DNA from: a virus
Taxonomy: Duplodnaviria; Heunggongvirae; Uroviricota; Caudoviricetes
Strand: one strand, 5' to 3'
IMG/VR virus record: IMGVR_UViG_2778261504_000009
Span: 1-6,021 of that record
DNA: 6,021 nucleotides
Of the stretch, positions 1 through 6,021 are shown piece by piece. The position numbers and the translations under genes are program-made. Below the pieces are notes generated by a model that was given only the letters and a program-made list of their open reading frames with translations, was not told the origin of the DNA and did no database searches. Numbering within the stretch: position 1 is the first letter of the stretch; each line of letters starts with the position of its first letter.

Positions 1-926
1 TCGCAGTACTGGCCGATGACATACAGCGCCCATTTGTCCACATCCGCCGCACCAAGACGTTTCCCCATGCCGTAGCGTGGATGGGTCAGCATATCCCACA
101 GACACCAGGCCATGTTATTGCTGTATGCTGGCTTAAACGTTCCGTCCCAGATACCGCTGTATTGCCGAGTCTGCGGGTTATAGTTCGACGGCACCTGCAG
201 AATACGCCCGCGCAGATGATAATTACGGCTCACCTGCTGGCTGCCGAACTGCTCCGAATCCACCTGTACGCCGACCAGTGCCGTGTTCGGGTAGCACTGT
301 TTCACATCGATGATTTCGGTGTATGACGACCAGAGCGTTTTGTTCTGCAGCTGGTCTGTGGTGCTGTCCGGCGTCATCCTGCGCATCCGGATATTGAACG
401 GGCGCGGCGGCAGGTCACCCACCACCACCGAGGCCAGATACTGCGACGTGGTTTTGCCCTTAATGGTGATGTCTTTTTCCGTCACCCAGCCACCGTTACG
501 CTGTATCTGAACCAGCAGGCGGACTTCCGATGGATTCCTGTCCCCCTTTGAAGTGGTTTCCACCAGTGCCTGCACACCGAAGGTAAAGCGCAGACGGTCG
601 ATGTTTGCCGACGTAATGGTCCGGGTAATCGGCGTGTCGTACTTCACCTCCGTACCCAGCACCGTCTCGGAGTCGGAGGATTCAAATCCCTCCGGCGGTG
701 TCTGCTCCTGCTCACCAGCCCGGAACACCACCGTGACACCGGAGATATTGGTATTCCCCTCACTGTCCAGCACTGGCGTACTGTTCAGCAGCACACTTTT
801 TAATCCCTCCACCGGACCTTCAATCGGCCCTTCACTGATGGCGTCTATCACGCTCAGCAGCGGGGATGATTTCAGGTTGTCCTTCGCTTCGCGCGGGGTA
901 TGCCCCTTACTGCTGCCTTTACCCAT
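1..926 (-). CDS. J: Tail tip / host-specificity protein J, N-terminal ~308 codons; gene runs off the window at position 1
   Basis: Not in the ORF track because no stop lies in the window. Reverse complement from ATG (complement of 924..926) reads MGKGSSKGHTPREAKDNLKSSPLLSVIDAISEGPIEGPVEGLKSVLLNST..., and near the window edge ...RQYSGIWDGTFKPAYSNNMAWCLWDMLTHPRYGMGKRLGAADVDKWALYVIGQYC, which matches lambda gpJ as I remember it. Sits 60 nt downstream of the I stop, as in lambda. Confidence 0.9.
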   Translation of the reverse strand, partial: MGKGSSKGHTPREAKDNLKSSPLLSVIDAISEGPIEGPVEGLKSVLLNSTPVLDSEGNTNISGVTVVFRAGEQEQTPPEGFESSDSETVLGTEVKYDTPITRTITSANIDRLRFTFGVQALVETTSKGDRNPSEVRLLVQIQRNGGWVTEKDITIKGKTTSQYLASVVVGDLPPRPFNIRMRRMTPDSTTDQLQNKTLWSSYTEIIDVKQCYPNTALVGVQVDSEQFGSQQVSRNYHLRGRILQVPSNYNPQTRQYSGIWDGTFKPAYSNNMAWCLWDMLTHPRYGMGKRLGAADVDKWALYVIGQYC

Positions 927-986
927 TCCTCTCGCTCCAGAAACGACAAAACCGCCCGCAGGCGGTTTCACATAAAACATTTTGCA

Positions 987-1628
987 TCAGCGACCAATCA
1001 CCACAACCTGACCACCATCCCCTTCGTCTGCCGTGCTGATTTCCTGCGAAATTACCCGTGACCCCACACGCATTTCACCGTACAGAACAGGCAGAACATT
1101 GCCCTGGGCAACCATGTTATCCAGTGATGAGAAATACGTGTTCTGCTTACCGTTATCCGTGCTGGTCGTTGTTGCGGTACTCGCTTTCGGTGCCAGCATC
1201 TGTGCAACACCGCCAAGCGTCATCGCTGCACCCATTGAAAAGAGAATGTCACTGAAAGCGATACTGATCCCCGGCATCCAGATTGCCGTAGCAATCAACG
1301 CCGCACCCAGCACCGCCTGAAACACACCGCCACTTTTTGCTCCCGCAAGACGCGGCACGATGTGGATCACGGCACCATTTGCCAGCGGCTCATTAAGACG
1401 GGATGATAATTCGGTTTCGCCTGCATCACGCCCGGCAATCCGTACCTGATACCAGCCGTCGCTCAGTTTCTGACGAAACGCCGGGAGCTGTGTGGCCAGT
1501 GCGCGGATGGCTTCAGCCCCCGTTTTCACACGAAGGTCGATGCGGCGGCCAAATCGTTGTAAATCCCCGTAAAGGCAGATGCGTGCCATGCCCGGTGACG
1601 CCAGAGGGAGTGTGTGCGTCGCTGCCAT
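987..1628 (-). CDS. I: Tail assembly protein I (lambda gpI-like), 213 aa
   Basis: ORF-track translation MAATHTLPLASPGMARICLYGDLQRFGRRIDLRVKTGAEAIRALATQLPAFRQKL... ...NGKQNTYFSSLDNMVAQGNVLPVLYGEMRVGSRVISQEISTADEGDGGQVVVIGR matches lambda gpI N- and C-termini from memory. Its 5' end overlaps the 3' end of K by 103 nt out of frame, as in lambda. Confidence 0.9.
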   Translation of the reverse strand: MAATHTLPLASPGMARICLYGDLQRFGRRIDLRVKTGAEAIRALATQLPAFRQKLSDGWYQVRIAGRDAGETELSSRLNEPLANGAVIHIVPRLAGAKSGGVFQAVLGAALIATAIWMPGISIAFSDILFSMGAAMTLGGVAQMLAPKASTATTTSTDNGKQNTYFSSLDNMVAQGNVLPVLYGEMRVGSRVISQEISTADEGDGGQVVVIGR

Positions 1629-2263
1629 TTGTCGGTATACCTCTCTCGTTTGCTCAGTTGTTCAGGAATATGGTGCAGCAGCTCGCCGTCGCCGCAGTAA
1701 ATAGCGGCATGATTCGGCACCGATGAACCAAAACAGCACAGCAGCACATCGCCCGGCTGCGCCGCTGACAACGGCACCTGATACAGCCCCGTTGCCTCCA
1801 GATTATCCAGATAGAGATTCTGACCGTGACGCCACCAGTCATCCCCGCGATGAAAATCCGGCATCTCAATCCCCGCCAGATGGTAAGCATCCCGGAACAG
1901 TGTGTAACAGTCCGTCACCCCGTGCTCAAAGCGCCGCCCGGTGAGATGCGGCACACAGCGGAATTTATGAATCTCACCCCGGCAGACCAGCCACCACGGC
2001 AAATCACTCTGCACCTGCAGCCGCCGGTCAGCCTCACTCAGCCAGGGCAGGCCACCGGGGTGGCTGTGGACCAGCGCCACAATCTCACCCTGCATTTTGG
2101 CCTGCAGCCAGTCCTCCGGAGCCATCCGGAAATAATCCTCCGGCTCACCGGAGATATTCACGCAGGGAAAATATCTTTCCCCCTCCGGCGTTCTCACCAC
2201 GAAGCCGCACGACTCCGCTGGCGCACATCGCCGGGCGTGCGCCAATATATTGCTATAGAGCAT
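1526..2263 (-). CDS. K: Tail assembly protein K (lambda gpK-like) with MPN/JAMM and NlpC/P60 peptidase motifs; start placed at the ATG with a strong SD (245 aa)
   Basis: Translation carries a JAMM-type motif HSHPGGLPWLSEAD (HxHx7Sx2D) and NlpC/P60-like Cys/His contexts (GVTDCYTLF, SVPNHAAIY). The ORF-track start at 2302 is rejected because codons 2-13 lie inside a hairpin/U-tract (2276..2299). The ATG at 2261..2263 is preceded by AGGAG (complement of 2269..2273) with a 5-nt spacer. An internal ATG at 2123..2125 would give the 199-aa length I recall for the classical lambda K annotation, so the start is uncertain. Confidence 0.85.
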   Translation of the reverse strand: MLYSNILAHARRCAPAESCGFVVRTPEGERYFPCVNISGEPEDYFRMAPEDWLQAKMQGEIVALVHSHPGGLPWLSEADRRLQVQSDLPWWLVCRGEIHKFRCVPHLTGRRFEHGVTDCYTLFRDAYHLAGIEMPDFHRGDDWWRHGQNLYLDNLEATGLYQVPLSAAQPGDVLLCCFGSSVPNHAAIYCGDGELLHHIPEQLSKRERYTDKWQRRTHSLWRHRAWHASAFTGIYNDLAAASTFV

Positions 2264-2275
2264 GAGAACTCCTGA

Positions 2276-2299
2276 TAAAAAACCCAGCCGAAGCTGGGT
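2276..2299 (-). terminator. Putative intrinsic terminator after ant: 6-7 bp GC-rich stem, UUCG loop, U6 tract, directly 5' of the K ribosome-binding site
   Basis: Minus-strand RNA reads CCCAGC-UUCG-GCUGGG-UUUUUU-AUC-AGGAG-UUCUC-AUG. Plus strand shows cccagc (2283..2288), loop cgaa, gctggg (2293..2298), with an A6 run at 2277..2282. Confidence 0.5.
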
Positions 2300-2317
2300 C
2301 ATTTCGTTGGCAATCTG

Positions 2318-3238
2318 TTAGTAGTGATGCAGTGAAGGAGGTAATTCTTTGTTCTTAAGTCTTAGCCATGCAGAAAGATTCGTTGGTCCGTCTGGCTCAT
2401 TAATATCAATATCTCGCGTGTGATTGATTAAAACGTCTCTCGCCATTCCAATAACATACGAGAACTCATGACCGTAGTCGTAGCATCTGCAGGAATAGTT
2501 CGATTGAATTTGCTTTAGCGCCGGATACAGTTCGCGGAATAATGCCTGTGAGCGGTTAGCATAATCCCATAACCATACAAGGCTGTTTGCTTCTTTTGCA
2601 GAAAGCTCGTTGGTTTTCTTCTCTTGTTTGCCAATGAACTCACCTTCAAGCGGAACGCGAGCAGCAAGTGACAGTGCTTCGGTAAACTGCTCCTCACTAA
2701 TTTCTTTGTACGAACATCCAAAATGGGATTTCAGTGACGACCACATGGTGATCATCGCCTTCGCCTGTTTTTCTTTTGGCAGAGACTGACCGCGACTCAT
2801 GACAAGTTGTTTAATGGCTTCCTGCTGTTCAGTGGTGATTTTCCCCAGCAATGCCTTTTTAGCTTTGCGCGGGTTAATCACATGGCCTTTAGTCCAGTAC
2901 TCGTAGAGCACATCGTCACACTCTTCCTGATACTGGATTACCTTCTCGCGGATTTCAGGGCGGACTTTGTTAGGACTGATGGTTTGGAGCCAACCATTCA
3001 GTTTACGCAAAGCAAGGCAAATCATGGTCTGCATACCGCCAACTGAAGGTATTGCGATTTCCACAATACCTTTAGCAAATCTTTGTTTTAACTTTGTAAA
3101 CTGTGAAGCCCAATCCATACCCATTCCCTCAACGATAGGTTTCATTGGGGTGTACGGTTCGCCGTTGTGATTGACGACATAAAGCTCTGCGCCGTGGAAT
3201 GGCACGTTGATAGTAGATACCGCTGTTGCTATACTCAT
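2318..3238 (-). CDS. ant: Ant-like phage antirepressor (P22 immI Ant family), 306 aa from the ATG start
   Basis: Translation MSIATAVSTINVPFHGAELYVVNHNGEPYTPMKPIVEGMGMDWASQFTKLKQ... has the look of phage antirepressor proteins and sits immediately downstream of an Arc-like gene, the P22 arc-ant order. The ORF-track start at 3292 is a GTG inside a hairpin; ATG at 3236..3238 is preceded by AGGAA (complement of 3247..3251). Family assignment is from memory and context, not from a search. Confidence 0.75.
   Translation of the reverse strand: MSIATAVSTINVPFHGAELYVVNHNGEPYTPMKPIVEGMGMDWASQFTKLKQRFAKGIVEIAIPSVGGMQTMICLALRKLNGWLQTISPNKVRPEIREKVIQYQEECDDVLYEYWTKGHVINPRKAKKALLGKITTEQQEAIKQLVMSRGQSLPKEKQAKAMITMWSSLKSHFGCSYKEISEEQFTEALSLAARVPLEGEFIGKQEKKTNELSAKEANSLVWLWDYANRSQALFRELYPALKQIQSNYSCRCYDYGHEFSYVIGMARDVLINHTRDIDINEPDGPTNLSAWLRLKNKELPPSLHHY
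3207..3235 (+). promoter_or_regulatory. Near-consensus sigma70-type promoter firing antisense across the ant start (Psar-like)
   Basis: TTGATA (3207..3212), 17-bp spacer, TATACT (3230..3235), with TG at 3227..3228 giving an extended -10 (TGcTATACT). Predicted start near 3242. Confidence 0.4.
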
Positions 3239-3241
3239 TTC

Positions 3242-3312
3242 GTTAGTTCCTTGGAAGTTACTGACATAGAAGCCCGATTTGTGTTCGCGCACTGTCGGGC
3301 TTCGCTATTTTT
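3242..3312 (+). ncRNA. Candidate sar-like small antisense RNA (~70 nt) complementary to the ant SD and the arc-ant intercistronic region
   Basis: Bounded by the promoter at 3207..3235 and a hairpin with 9-bp stem gaagcccga (3269..3277) / tcgggcttc (3295..3303) followed by gcUAUUUUUAU (3304..3314). Coordinates are approximate. Size and position mirror the P22 sar RNA as I recall it. Confidence 0.35.
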
Positions 3313-3314
3313 AT
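3269..3314 (+). terminator. Hairpin plus U-rich tract in the arc-ant intercistronic region; candidate terminator for the antisense RNA
   Basis: Perfect 9-bp inverted repeat 3269..3277 / 3295..3303 with a 17-nt loop that can form an inner GUG/CAC stem, followed after 2 nt by tattttta. The U tract is not directly adjacent to the stem, hence modest confidence. Confidence 0.35.
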
Positions 3315-3478
3315 GTCCTAGCATTCTTCTCTCCAATCAGTCCGTACACTTTTCTCAATTGATAAATAAGTTCCGTGTTGAACTGTCGACACTCTTTTTC
3401 TCCATTTCTTTCAATCGCCTTCCTTACATCCTCTGGGAAACGAACCTTGCGTTGATACATGTCTTTTGCTTTTTCCAT
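3311..3478 (-). CDS. arc: Arc-like ribbon-helix-helix repressor, 55 aa (not in the ORF track)
   Basis: Hand translation of the reverse complement gives MEKAKDMYQRKVRFPEDVRKAIERNGEKECRQFNTELIYQLRKVYGLIGEKNART, stop TAA at complement of 3311..3313. Resembles P22 Arc (...FNLRWPREVLDLVRKVAEENGRSVNSEIYQRVMESF...) in the R-x-P-x-E-V strand and N-x-E-I/L-Y-Q helix. Preceded by AAGGAG (complement of 3484..3489) 5 nt before the ATG. Confidence 0.75.
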   Translation of the reverse strand: MEKAKDMYQRKVRFPEDVRKAIERNGEKECRQFNTELIYQLRKVYGLIGEKNART

Positions 3479-3495
3479 CTCCACTCCTTAAATAG

Positions 3496-3558
3496 CCTCA
3501 CTGTGGGGCAATCAAAATTGTCACACCGTGCGTCATTGAAGTCAACCCCACCGTGGGG
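3496..3558. promoter_or_regulatory. Operator-like sites: three CACYGTG cores at 25-bp phasing, two embedded in 13-bp palindromes
   Basis: Perfect palindrome ccccac-c-gtgggg (3546..3558) and near-palindrome cctcac-t-gtgggg (3496..3508) share the core CCNCACYGTGGGGCA. A third caccgtg lies at 3524..3530. The cores start at 3499, 3524 and 3549. Confidence 0.45.
3517..3545 (-). promoter_or_regulatory. Candidate Pant-like promoter for arc-ant
   Basis: On the minus strand: TTGACT (complement of 3540..3545), 17-bp spacer, GACAAT (complement of 3517..3522) preceded by TGT (extended -10 form). Predicted start near 3510, about 30 nt upstream of the arc ATG. Confidence 0.4.
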
Positions 3559-3564
3559 CATAAT
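3536..3564 (+). promoter_or_regulatory. Candidate Pmnt-like promoter for the Mnt-like gene, back-to-back with the arc-ant promoter
   Basis: TTGAAG (3536..3541), 17-bp spacer, CATAAT (3559..3564). Its -35 overlaps the -35 of the divergent minus-strand promoter by 2 bp. Confidence 0.4.
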
Positions 3565-3601
3565 TTACTTATTGTGAATTTTTCCTGTTTGGACTAATGG
3601 T

Positions 3602-3976
3602 ATGAGTAGAGAAGACCCTCAACTTCGGATTAGGCTTCCTGTTGAATTAAAAAAAATAATTGAAGCGTCATCAAAACAAAATAATCGTTCTATGAATGCT
3701 GAGATTGTCACTCTGCTTGAGTTGGCGATTCGTGTTTGTCGTGATTTTGGGCCGGAGGATGGTCCTATCGTTCAGCAGTTTAAAGAACAACTAGATGCGA
3801 TAAACAGAAAATATGATAAAAGCGAGCATGAAAAACTTATACCTCAACTTTTAGAAATCATAGAAAAACAGAAAAAACAAGTAGATAAACTTATTAGCAT
3901 GGTTGAAAGATCAATTCCTCTTTCAGAGGAATATAAGCAGAAATATCTTGGTGATGACAACAAAAAACCCACCTGA
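3602..3976 (+). CDS. mnt: Mnt-like ribbon-helix-helix repressor with an extended charged C-terminal region, 124 aa
   Basis: N-terminus MSREDPQLRIRLPVELKKIIEASSKQNNRSMNAEIVTLLELAI resembles P22 Mnt (ARDDPHFNFRMPMEVREKL...NGRSMNSELLQIVQDAL) as recalled. The C-terminal ~80 residues are K/E/Q-rich and probably helical. Divergent from arc-ant as in P22 immI. The SD is weak. Confidence 0.75.
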   Translation: MSREDPQLRIRLPVELKKIIEASSKQNNRSMNAEIVTLLELAIRVCRDFGPEDGPIVQQFKEQLDAINRKYDKSEHEKLIPQLLEIIEKQKKQVDKLISMVERSIPLSEEYKQKYLGDDNKKPT

Positions 3977-3983
3977 TGGTGGG
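3962..3983 (-). terminator. Putative intrinsic terminator 3' of L, overlapping the stop codon of the convergent Mnt-like gene
   Basis: Minus-strand RNA reads CCCACC-AUCA-GGUGGG-UUUUUUGUUGU. Plus strand shows cccacc (3968..3973), loop tgat, ggtggg (3978..3983), preceded by an A6 run (3962..3967). The mnt TGA stop (3974..3976) lies in the loop. Confidence 0.45.
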
Positions 3984-3992
3984 CATAATCCA

Positions 3993-4691
3993 TTACTGCG
4001 AAAGTTTGTTAATGGAAAGGAAGCCGCCAAAGTTGCCGACGTTATTGCGAAACTTACAGCCACTCAGGCATTTGCTGCATTTATCCTTCGTGATATCGGA
4101 CGTCGGCTGGTCATATTCATCCGCGACAGCCGGACCGTTATAACCGCACTCATCACCGCGATAGGTCCAGGTGCAGGTGTTGGCCAGCATGATACGCCCC
4201 GGAAAAACAGCGCCATCCGTTTCCGTCGGCGTGGCCAGTACAAAGGAGGCACTCACCGCGCTCAGTTCACTGCACTGCTCGATGCGCCAGCGGCTGATCA
4301 CCTCCTGCTCCGGATCGGCGTCACTGTTTCCGTTGACGAAGTTCACCGCATCCAGAAAACGGGCGTAAACCTTACGCCTGACCACCGTTCCGCCGACCAG
4401 ACTCTGCATATCTTCCACCATACCGGTGACCATGCCGTACAGGTTAGAGACTGCCAGCGTGGGCCGCGTACTGGTGCCTTTGCCATTCAGTTCAAAACCG
4501 CTCCCCTGAATGGGATACGCCTGATACTGCCTCCCCTGCCAGGTGATCGGCTCACCTTTTTCGTTCTGCTCATTACAGAAAAAATAACGTTCTCCACCGA
4601 CCTCTGTCAGGTCGATTTCCCAGAGCACCACGCTGGCCGACTGCTCCGCACGGGTGCATTCATTCAGTGTTTCCTGCCGGATATCCTGCAT
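3993..4691 (-). CDS. L: Tail tip protein L (lambda gpL-like), 232 aa
   Basis: Translation MQDIRQETLNECTRAEQSASVVLWEIDLTEVGGERYFFCNEQNEKGEP...CSKCLSGCKFRNNVGNFGGFLSINKLSQ matches lambda gpL from memory. Start overlaps the M stop by 1 nt (TGATG). Confidence 0.9.
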   Translation of the reverse strand: MQDIRQETLNECTRAEQSASVVLWEIDLTEVGGERYFFCNEQNEKGEPITWQGRQYQAYPIQGSGFELNGKGTSTRPTLAVSNLYGMVTGMVEDMQSLVGGTVVRRKVYARFLDAVNFVNGNSDADPEQEVISRWRIEQCSELSAVSASFVLATPTETDGAVFPGRIMLANTCTWTYRGDECGYNGPAVADEYDQPTSDITKDKCSKCLSGCKFRNNVGNFGGFLSINKLSQ

Positions 4692-5020
4692 CAGTTCACC
4701 ACCTGTTCAAACTCTGCGCTGAACTCAACACGCAGCATACTGACCCGCGACGACCATTTTGCGCAGGTCACCTTTATCTGCCGCCACTCATAAGGCGGCG
4801 TCCACAGAAAGGCTTTCCAGCCCCCGTGCTCTTCCAGAAACGACTCCAGTACCGTGGCCTCCTCACGGGGGACAGAAAGCGTCACGCTGTACGTTTTCAG
4901 GTTGGCATTCAGCCCGGCAGGCGCTCGCTGGGAATAGCCATCACCAAAGCGCACCTTTCTTACAGAAGGGGCCGAAGCCACATCCATACCGGGTTTCACT
5001 TTCCAGCGGAAGGTTTTCAT
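4691..5020 (-). CDS. M: Tail tip protein M (lambda gpM-like), 109 aa
   Basis: Translation MKTFRWKVKPGMDVASAPSVRKVRFGDGYSQRAPAGLNANLKTYSVTLSVPREEATVLESFLEEHGGWKAFLWTPPYEWRQIKVTCAKWSSRVSMLRVEFSAEFEQVVN matches lambda gpM from memory. ATGA overlap with the H stop. Confidence 0.9.
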   Translation of the reverse strand: MKTFRWKVKPGMDVASAPSVRKVRFGDGYSQRAPAGLNANLKTYSVTLSVPREEATVLESFLEEHGGWKAFLWTPPYEWRQIKVTCAKWSSRVSMLRVEFSAEFEQVVN

Positions 5021-6021
5021 CGTCCACCTCCGGAGAACAGGCCACCATCACGCATCTGTGTCTGAATTTCATCACGGGCACCCTTGCGGGCCATGTCATA
5101 CACTGCCTTCATCATCTGTGGACCTGGCAGACCATTCGTACCGTCGTTCTGAATCACCACGTGATTGTTCTGATTAAAATTAATGCCTTCAGCCCGCCGC
5201 ATCTGCGCCGGACTTCCGGCACCGCCCACATAACCACCTTCCGCATAGCCCCGCATCAGGCGGTACAGGTTGCCGACACCAATCCGGCTGGTTGCCTCCT
5301 TCGTGAAGACAAATTCACCACGGTGAACAATCCCCGCTGGCTCATATTTGCCGCCGGTTCCCGTAAATCCCCCGGTCGCGAAATGGAAGTTCGCCGCCGC
5401 AGCCTGAATGGCCGTCCCCGTGGAGGCAGACGCACCACCACCGAAAGCACCGCCAATGGCGCTGCCGATACTCCCGACTATCCCCACCATCGCCTGCTTC
5501 AGAAAAATCTCTGTCAGCATGGAGAGCACAGAACGGGTGAAACCACGCCAGTTCTGTTCGCTGCCGGTCAGCATCGCTGCCATATTCTGTGCAATACCGT
5601 CAAAGGTCTGCGTGGCCGCGCTTTTAACCTGCGAAAAACTGTCCGTCGCACTTTCCGCCCACTCGCCCCAGCCGGACTTCAGCCCGGCCATCCAGCTTCC
5701 ACGAAGCTGCTCCTCCGCAGACCAGGTGTTCTTCAGTGCAGATGTGGCCTTCGCCAGCGCAGCCGGATTATCACCGTACACGTCACGAAGGCGCTGCTCT
5801 TCCGACTCCCGCTGCGCCTGACGGTCGGTGAGGCCGCGGGCTTTTGCGCTGATGGCTGCCTGCTTCGCGCTCTGCTGCTGTTCAAACCGCGCCGCCTGCT
5901 GTGCCAGCTCATTCAGCCGTTTCTGGTGTTCAACCTTGTCGCCAAGCTCAGCCAGCTGGCGTTTGTACTCCAGCGTCTCTTTCTCATGGGTCAGCAGGGA
6001 TTTTTCCTGCTCAGATAACTG
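5017..6021 (-). CDS. H: Tail tape-measure protein H, C-terminal ~334 codons; 5' part lies beyond the window
   Basis: The frame is open from the window edge: reverse complement from 6021 reads QLSEQEKSLLTHEKETLEYKRQLAELGDKVEHQKRLNELAQQAARFEQQQSAKQAAISAKARGLTDRQAQRESEEQRLRDVYGDNPAALAKAT... and ends ...RDGGLFSGGGR, matching the lambda gpH C-terminus from memory. The ORF-track M at 5781 is an internal GTG (Val), not a start. Confidence 0.9.
   Translation of the reverse strand, partial: QLSEQEKSLLTHEKETLEYKRQLAELGDKVEHQKRLNELAQQAARFEQQQSAKQAAISAKARGLTDRQAQRESEEQRLRDVYGDNPAALAKATSALKNTWSAEEQLRGSWMAGLKSGWGEWAESATDSFSQVKSAATQTFDGIAQNMAAMLTGSEQNWRGFTRSVLSMLTEIFLKQAMVGIVGSIGSAIGGAFGGGASASTGTAIQAAAANFHFATGGFTGTGGKYEPAGIVHRGEFVFTKEATSRIGVGNLYRLMRGYAEGGYVGGAGSPAQMRRAEGINFNQNNHVVIQNDGTNGLPGPQMMKAVYDMARKGARDEIQTQMRDGGLFSGGGR

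Follow-up and report, generated by a model that had tools for sequence, protein, structure and literature searches.

An antirepressor module within a prophage tail operon

We analyzed a 6,021-nucleotide stretch of viral DNA (Duplodnaviria; Heunggongvirae; Uroviricota; Caudoviricetes; positions 1 to 6,021 of IMG/VR record IMGVR_UViG_2778261504_000009), referred to here as the window, with a focus on a 124-residue repressor of the Arc/Mnt type and on the tail that follows its DNA-binding head. The window is a block of lambda-type tail genes on the minus strand, in which Pfam identifies the C-terminal part of the tape-measure protein followed by M, L, K and I, and this block is split between L (3993-4691) and K by an insert of three genes. 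The insert consists of the mnt-like repressor gene (3602-3976, plus strand; 124 codons and a stop), a small arc-like gene (3311-3478, minus strand) and an antirepressor gene, ant (2318-3238, minus strand).

The repressor gene is supported by the list of open reading frames (ORFs), a Pfam Arc match, a RefSeq annotation and a ratio of nonsynonymous to synonymous substitution rates (dN/dS) below 1. RefSeq names the product 'Arc family DNA-binding protein' (WP_032258060.1) in a prophage of Escherichia coli Res13-Lact-PEA14-20, to which positions 2300-4000 of the window are 99.9% identical. The repressor is thus already in the databases under a generic name, and the type of module around it is known as well. 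An earlier reading of this DNA, made from its letters alone and called here the sequence-only reading, had drawn attention to this protein, and the amino acid sequence that it quoted is identical at every residue to the translation of the plus-strand ORF at 3602-3976.

The arc-like gene comes first in the ant transcript and encodes a ribbon-helix-helix (RHH) protein of 55 residues with the β-strand QRKVRFP. It is a RefSeq coding sequence, it matches the PHROG family 'Arc-like repressor' with an E-value of 1.3e-5, and its match to Pfam Arc (E 0.0012, 19.1 bits) falls slightly below the cut-off of 20.4. The ant gene, which RefSeq starts at 3238 and whose longest ORF extends to 3292, encodes both domains of a P22-type antirepressor, P22_AR_N (E 1e-44) and P22_AR_C (E 4e-29).

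An mnt/arc/ant arrangement within a late operon is characteristic of the immunity I (immI) region, or 'ant moron', of P22-like phages (PMC2629481). In the window we find a gene for a P22-type Ant, an Arc-like gene between the promoter and ant, insertion as a unit into a tail operon and, judged by consensus sites, divergent overlapping promoters with palindromic candidate operators between mnt and arc. These sequence features point to the repressor gene as the mnt-equivalent of an immI-like ant moron lodged in a lambda-like E. coli prophage, with tail gene L on one side and K on the other. They also bear out the description of the protein as Mnt-like in the sequence-only reading, as its head is homologous to that of Mnt and its gene diverges from arc-like and ant genes. 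A scan of the window at the Rfam gathering thresholds gave no match, with no dedicated search made for an antisense RNA of the sar type. The repressor gene ends at 3976 and gene L converges on it from the other strand 17 bp downstream, so that nothing is co-transcribed with it; the co-transcribed toxin gene that would lie immediately 3' of an RHH type II antitoxin gene is absent.

A ribbon-helix-helix head joined to a lineage-restricted tail

Residues 1-45 (3602-3736, plus strand) make up the RHH head, with a β-strand, PQLRIRLP, followed by two helices. Pfam Arc (PF03869) matches residues 2-40 with 30.6 bits (cut-off 20.4), and PHROG families of the Arc-like and Mnt types match with E-values of 1e-10 to 1e-16. 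With phmmer, the alignment to the P22 Mnt structure in the Protein Data Bank (PDB; entry 1mnt) is confined to residues 3-43. BLASTP against the 83-residue P22 Mnt sequence, which is consistent with the 1mnt alignment, gave 14 identities in 43 positions (33%, E 2e-10) and likewise ended at residue 43 of the query, while hhalign of the family profile against P22 Mnt aligned residues 1-42 with 96% probability. The best Foldseek matches of the head are Arc, AmrZ and CopG, with template modeling scores to the target of 0.67-0.83 and probabilities of 0.97-1.0 at E-values of only 0.17-1.8. AlphaFold2 (AF2) models an extended segment at the N-terminus and then helices at residues 14-26 and 31-49, giving the order strand-helix-helix; the β-strand itself is not formed in the monomer model, as expected of a monomer. 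By all of these comparisons the head is an Arc/Mnt-family DNA-binding domain, in agreement with the sequence-only reading, which had placed it in roughly the first 45 residues.

The rest of the protein, residues 46-124, is what sets it apart from P22 Mnt, which is 41 residues shorter. The sequence-only reading had described an extension of about 80 residues that is rich in lysine, glutamate and glutamine and helical in character; we count 79 residues, of which 35% are K, E or Q and 39% are charged, with a net charge of -1. AF2 run on the family alignment (mean predicted local distance difference test score (pLDDT) 72.7, predicted template modeling score (pTM) 0.36) places tail helices at residues 55-70, 73-104 and 109-115 and leaves 119-124 disordered. 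A model of the tail by itself has the same helices, with a pLDDT of 82-95 on the long helix and a pTM of 0.37. As a monomer, then, the tail has no confident tertiary fold in either model (pTM 0.36-0.37).

The tail begins with a conserved hinge (C46-R-D-F-G-P-E-D-G-P55) and an amphipathic helix, α3 (residues 55-70), which together span 3737-3811 on the plus strand according to the alignment and AF2 and read ...LELAIRVC-R-D-F-G-P-E-D-G-P-VVQQFKERL.... Invariant positions in the family alignment are C46, F49, G54, P55, Q59 and L64. Across residues 38-66 the proportion of nonsynonymous differences (pN) is 0.03-0.19 and that of synonymous differences (pS) 0.24-0.91, so that the protein sequence is conserved although synonymous differences are numerous. 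The hinge and α3 are common to both sub-variants of the tail and to both types of RHH head that carry it. We also observed that Cys46 and the FGPxDGP motif (3737-3766), between the RHH and the tail helices, are invariant in 23 of 23 aligned family members.

Beyond the hinge lies a long amphipathic helix, α4 (residues 73-104; 3818-3913, plus strand), which is the candidate self-association helix. Its heptad core runs I80/L83/I87/(K91)/V94/L97-I98/V101/I105, with L84 listed beside L83, and over residues 78-107 the a and d positions read ILIKVIVI. Sub-variant B tails have a different sequence in place of the α4 region. Both AF2 models add a short helix at residues 109-115 (EEYKQKY; 3926-3946, plus strand). 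The sequence-only reading had named structure prediction as a check, with a standard Mnt-like tetramerization helix of normal length and no extra domain as the outcome that would count against it; in the models, the 32-residue helix is instead preceded by a further element, a conserved hinge with a helix (residues 46-70).

Searches with the tail returned little outside its own family. It had no meaningful family match in Pfam, PHROG or NCBIfam; by sequence, designed helical repeat proteins were its only PDB matches (E > 0.02); and Foldseek searches of the PDB with the full-length and tail-only models found nothing that matched the tail. Comparison with the P22 Mnt C-terminal helix by phmmer, BLASTP and hhalign gave no similarity past residue 43. 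An exhaustive phmmer search with residues 50-124 against 1.84 billion representative proteins recovered the family itself and one weak match, to a protein of 2301 residues. Because family, structure and billion-scale sequence searches returned essentially this family alone, the tail is, as far as these comparisons reach, a lineage-restricted sequence of a small enterobacterial prophage family.

This family comprises about 20 full-length clusters from E. coli, Salmonella and Citrobacter. In divergent pairs (Nei-Gojobori), which differ at many synonymous sites, dN/dS is 0.11-0.35 for tail residues 46-118 and about 0.05 for the RHH head. With full-length clusters in such number and a tail dN/dS in this range, the ORF is not a chance frame, and by this comparative evidence the tail is translated and constrained.

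Among isolated phages the head alone is represented in tblastn searches of the phage collection, and a megablast of 3300-4000 against the same collection gave no match. In TL-2011b, the isolated phage that comes closest, the allele is different and apparently disrupted. Several of the records matched by tblastn, from Salmonella phages ST160, SE1, ST64T and others, annotate the mnt product as 'partition protein ATPase', a label also attached to two of the PHROG families that match the RHH head; it appears to be a propagated misannotation.

Many tails on one head

The relatives of the repressor show how variable this part of the protein is. Among the 120 best clusters, 116 share a head with MSREDPQLRIRLP; the median length is 143 residues, 105 of the 120 exceed 110 residues and 10 have 90 or fewer. 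In a BLAST clustering the tails on this head separate into at least nine types without links between them, with the window type accounting for 26 of 121 sequences (the 120 clusters and the window protein). Mnt-sized tails of a single helix also occur on this head, as in relatives of 86-87 residues (e.g. ...LHKLMENLETLLENV...). The sequence-only reading was therefore right that the protein is longer than P22 Mnt, while its implication that this length is special was not supported: judged by sequence lengths, a long tail is typical within this clade, and the 86-87-residue relatives go with the same operator layout.

Sister alleles on the SREDPQ head, annotated as 'Arc family DNA-binding protein' and ranging from 77 to 194 residues in enterobacterial prophages, share with the window a near-identical head, the Arc-like neighbor, the promoters and the three-site operator layout. 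They have the same module architecture beside Bro-N, ANT or P22_AR antirepressors, and differ in their tails, which are unrelated and fall into the at least nine BLAST-unlinked types. In complete E. coli genomes (n = 5426), the whole window gene is present in 2, and its regulatory region with the first ~36 codons is joined to another tail in 36. Some of the other-tail alleles have an extra co-oriented gene directly 3' of the repressor gene (loci L005-L007, 3572-3940; L039, 2987-3550; L042, 2258-2665), which the window allele does not have.

Exchange has also occurred on the other side of the hinge. A scan of genome contigs extended the family by a single member, L014, whose head differs and whose tail is of sub-variant B. 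In L004 (3001-3390) and L014 (~1450-1824; Citrobacter) we observed a different RHH head (MSEKFPSQMQDKFTVRFP...) joined to the same tails at the conserved LELAIRVCRDFGP hinge. Since different heads meet the same tails at this point, the hinge looks like a recombination joint on which selection at the protein level also acts. Two points are modestly new here: the tail is a replacement made of two helices and not homologous to the Mnt helix, and it belongs to an extensive natural series in which tails are exchanged on a constant head and set of operators.

A compact control region with three candidate operators

The repressor and arc-like genes are separated by a 123-bp intergenic region that contains two face-to-face promoter-like sites, both recognized as consensus matches. 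The site for the mnt-like gene (3536-3564, plus strand; TTGAAG, 17-nt spacer, CATAAT) is kept in related loci, and that for the arc-like gene and ant (3517-3545, minus strand) has TTGACT, a 17-nt spacer and (TG)GACAAT. Their -35 elements overlap.

Three operator-like sites with a CAC-N-GTG core lie among these elements. A near-palindrome at 3496-3510 (CCTCAC-T-GTGGGGCA, centered at 3502) would cover the ant promoter from about +1 to +15; a weaker site at 3521-3533 (TCACAC-C-GTGCGT, centered at 3527) falls in the spacer of that promoter beside the -10 element and is identical in 10 related loci; and a palindrome at 3546-3560 (CCCCAC-C-GTGGGGCA, centered at 3552) lies within the mnt promoter spacer, immediately upstream of the -35 element of ant. 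The outer two were found by the repeat finder as well as by the CACNGTG scan, and the middle one by the scan. CACNGTG occurs five times in the 6-kb window, with three of the occurrences in the intergenic region, against an expectation of about 0.04 there.

The layout is conserved across tails. The three sites are exactly 25 bp apart in the window and 24-26 bp apart in ten related loci with six different tail types; an eleventh locus with this head, L043, has two exact cores and a degenerate third. The distance from the ATG to the site centered at 3552 is 36 bp in L043 and 49-51 bp in every other locus with this head. In the 86- and 87-residue relatives the sites are 100/74/49 and 101/75/50 bp from the ATG, respectively. 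A spacing of 25 bp corresponds to about 2.4 helical turns, which puts neighboring sites on different faces of the DNA.

In L004 and L014, the loci with the other head, the repeats are different as well (GAAGTCAA, in three copies), and so is the Arc-like neighbor. We tried to use these head-swapped loci to assign the sites to either the Mnt-like or the Arc-like protein, and this failed, as the Arc-like partner changes with the head. The two proteins have similar strands of the pattern Q-x-R/K-x-R, in the window Q-L-R-I-R in the Mnt-like and Q-R-K-V-R in the Arc-like protein.

A shared 3' junction and an unrelated repressor in the same slot

The last codons of the repressor gene coincide with a conserved boundary of the module. 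In the segment 3956-3990 the codons for D-N-K-K-P-T and the stop overlap a minus-strand terminator-like hairpin 3' of L, detected by terminator scan and RNA folding. Its sequence is GCCCACCAUCAGGUGGGU followed by UUUUUU, with the stem at 3984-3967 by the terminator scan and a folding energy of -14.1 kcal/mol (z = -2.0). An unrelated repressor allele in E. coli EC12, with helix-turn-helix (HTH) and peptidase S24 domains, closes with the same 35 nt at 100% identity (3' end of L002, 3590-3625) and hence also ends in DNKKPT; the junction is found too at the 3' ends of L010, L008, L004, L036 and L038, and ..PT is the ending of 50 of 120 relatives, irrespective of tail type. Because an unrelated gene shares this ending and so many relatives retain its last residues, this stretch of six codons is to be read mainly as a conserved junction in the DNA, with its terminator, and not as part of a domain. 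The 3' junction looks like a conserved module boundary or recombination junction that dictates protein sequence.

At the other edge of the module, 3' of ant and before tail gene K, the terminator scan detected a second terminator-like hairpin (2281-2300, minus strand). The two hairpins (2281-2300 and 3967-3984, both on the minus strand) bracket the ant module within the tail operon, and late transcription to K, I and J would have to pass both.

The HTH and S24 repressor (LexA/CI-type) occupies the same slot, in the same orientation, between L and the pair formed by the small gene and ant. It is a wholly different protein of 269 residues with HTH_3 and S24 domains (L002, 2795-3604) and has a different intergenic control region. 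It presumably cleaves itself in the SOS response, whereas the Mnt-like protein has no such feature, which suggests that this allele is an SOS-wired version of the same ant module.

Possible functions of the tail

We favor a reading in which the protein is the Mnt-equivalent maintenance repressor of ant and its tail an interchangeable self-association module for cooperative binding, and we put its probability at about 0.55. RHH head dimers would bind some or all of the three candidate sites, and with these sites occupied, the promoter of the antirepressor would be silenced and the repressor would regulate its own transcription. The tail would join the dimers into tetramers or higher forms that bind the operators cooperatively, and would thereby take the role that one helix of ~30 residues plays in P22 Mnt.

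Of the functions considered for the tail, self-association is most likely on the predicted structures, because amphipathic, heptad-patterned helices (pLDDT 82-95) that lack a confident fold as monomers are what would be expected if packing occurs only in an oligomer. The tail is also constrained and placed where the tetramerization helix of Mnt stands. Many unrelated helical tails, Mnt-sized ones included, serve the same head and operators, which argues for a function that many helical sequences can supply, and the type of tail tracks neither the type of antirepressor nor the Arc-like neighbor. There is precedent in the family: in Mnt the C-terminal domain stabilizes tetramers, and AmrZ, an Arc/Mnt-like RHH protein, has a C-terminal domain that resembles no other protein in sequence and has been proposed as the driver of oligomerization (PMC3325190). 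A different oligomerization domain was one of two functions suggested by the sequence-only reading, and it is the better supported, though an inference, given the lack of similarity to the Mnt helix, the heptad spacing and the absence of a confident monomer fold.

Several points weigh against this reading. The structures are predictions of monomers only, with which a dimer, a tetramer or another form would all be compatible, and the heptad pattern comes from a simple in-house script and not from a calibrated coiled-coil predictor. The commonest alternative tail (in proteins of 143-147 residues) is not coiled-coil-like by sequence, so the tails need not share one function. Plain oligomerization does not account for the conservation of the hinge with its invariant Cys46 and FGPxDGP. 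Finally, the candidate operators are not attributable to the Mnt-like over the Arc-like protein, as the two co-vary in every comparable locus; comparison does not decide ownership because the Arc-like partner changes together with the head and the strands of both proteins are similar.

The second function raised by the sequence-only reading was partner binding. The tail could be a signal-input or partner-binding domain on which a factor from host or phage acts, by binding or degrading it, to lift repression of ant, with different tails standing for different induction signals. RHH proteins commonly bind partners through C-terminal extensions, and the weaker Foldseek matches include the antitoxins TacA, AtaR and KacA. 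The slot can carry a sensor, since sister prophages hold a repressor of the self-cleaving type there; the strong purifying selection on the hinge points the same way, and some relatives do have a co-oriented downstream gene. In the window itself, however, no gene is co-transcribed with the repressor, and among known sensor, ligand-binding and toxin-binding families the tail has no match. The same tail stands beside at least three antirepressor architectures (P22_AR in the window, Bro-N with an unknown protein, and Bro-N with ANT), and the Arc-like neighbor follows the head and not the tail; binding to Ant or Arc in particular is disfavored, as neither co-varies with the tail. P22 Mnt, moreover, needs no inducer. 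We therefore regard partner binding as unlikely. A broader form of the idea, that the unrelated tails are alternative input domains through which each ant moron releases its antirepressor on a different cue, with the HTH and S24 repressor as the SOS-wired version, seems to us improbable. If it were true, the window tail with its Cys46/FGPxDGP hinge would represent a new module for sensing or for recognizing a partner, with control over prophage induction.

It is also conceivable, if rather unlikely, that the tail does no more than stabilize the RHH dimer, for instance as a helical hairpin that pairs into a four-helix bundle, with no tetramers formed and any cooperativity arising from contacts between heads as in Arc. 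Arc binds cooperatively without any tail, and the amphipathic helices at 55-70 and 73-104, as modeled with a break of two residues between them, could form a hairpin. Yet the monomer models do not pack these two helices with confidence, the Mnt-sized relatives have a single helix that is incapable of a hairpin, and the protein holds the position of Mnt in the module, Mnt being a tetramer (PMC3325190). We give very little credence to the tail as a molecular ruler that bridges operators 25-50 bp apart, a distance wider than the single Mnt operator. The 25-bp intervals and our estimate that the 32-residue helix, together with the hinge and α3, could reach approximately to an adjacent site made it attractive, but the 86- and 87-residue relatives keep the identical three-site layout with Mnt-sized tails, and relatives with tails from ~42 to ~102 residues share it; we rejected the idea on the former ground. 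Scarcely credible, lastly, is an extension that represents non-functional read-through or an annotation artefact. The final six codons, dictated by a junction common to unrelated genes, would fit such an origin, but the dN/dS of the tail, the retention of its full length in E. coli, Salmonella and Citrobacter and the confidently predicted helices do not. The selection analysis refutes an artefact for residues 46-118 and leaves it plausible only for about 119-124.

Relation to known repressors and to prophage induction

The closest known counterpart is P22 Mnt of the immI region (1mnt being its N-terminal domain). Both proteins have a homologous RHH head, the same place in the module, divergent from arc and ant, and a helical C-terminal part. 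They differ in that part: C-terminal residues ~52-82 of P22 Mnt have no detectable similarity to the window tail, and its tail of ~38 residues compares with 79 in the window, where a conserved hinge and helix are added. The P22 Mnt operator is a single 17-bp site, in contrast to the three CAC-N-GTG sites 25 bp apart in the window. The window module resides in a lambda-like siphovirus prophage, inserted between L and K, and not in a P22-like podovirus. Held to strict orthology with P22 Mnt, the protein shares the N-terminal domain and, by sequence comparison, is without a homologous C-terminal tetramerization helix.

AmrZ of Pseudomonas aeruginosa (PDB 3qoq) is another Arc/Mnt-like RHH protein of similar size (108 residues) and is among the top Foldseek matches for the head. 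It differs from the window protein in being a chromosomal global regulator and not a phage ant-moron repressor, and in having an extended N-terminal arm; the tails of the two share no sequence similarity.

Taken alone, the window protein is of little weight, being one more uncharacterized 'Arc family DNA-binding protein' that guards a prophage antirepressor gene. The clade to which it belongs is a natural domain-swap series, with one head, one operator layout, at least nine tails and a LexA/CI-type repressor in the same slot, and this makes it convenient for asking what an RHH tail must provide. Whether the tails act as glue or as signal inputs bears on prophage induction and cross-talk, because antirepressor modules affect the timing of induction and some of the prophages carry type III effector genes such as those for EspJ and EspS. 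The Res13-Lact-PEA14-20 prophage (L001, 2578-4660) adjoins bioA/ybhB, and after its tail-fiber genes it carries type III effector genes for an EspJ family ADP-ribosyltransferase and for EspS.

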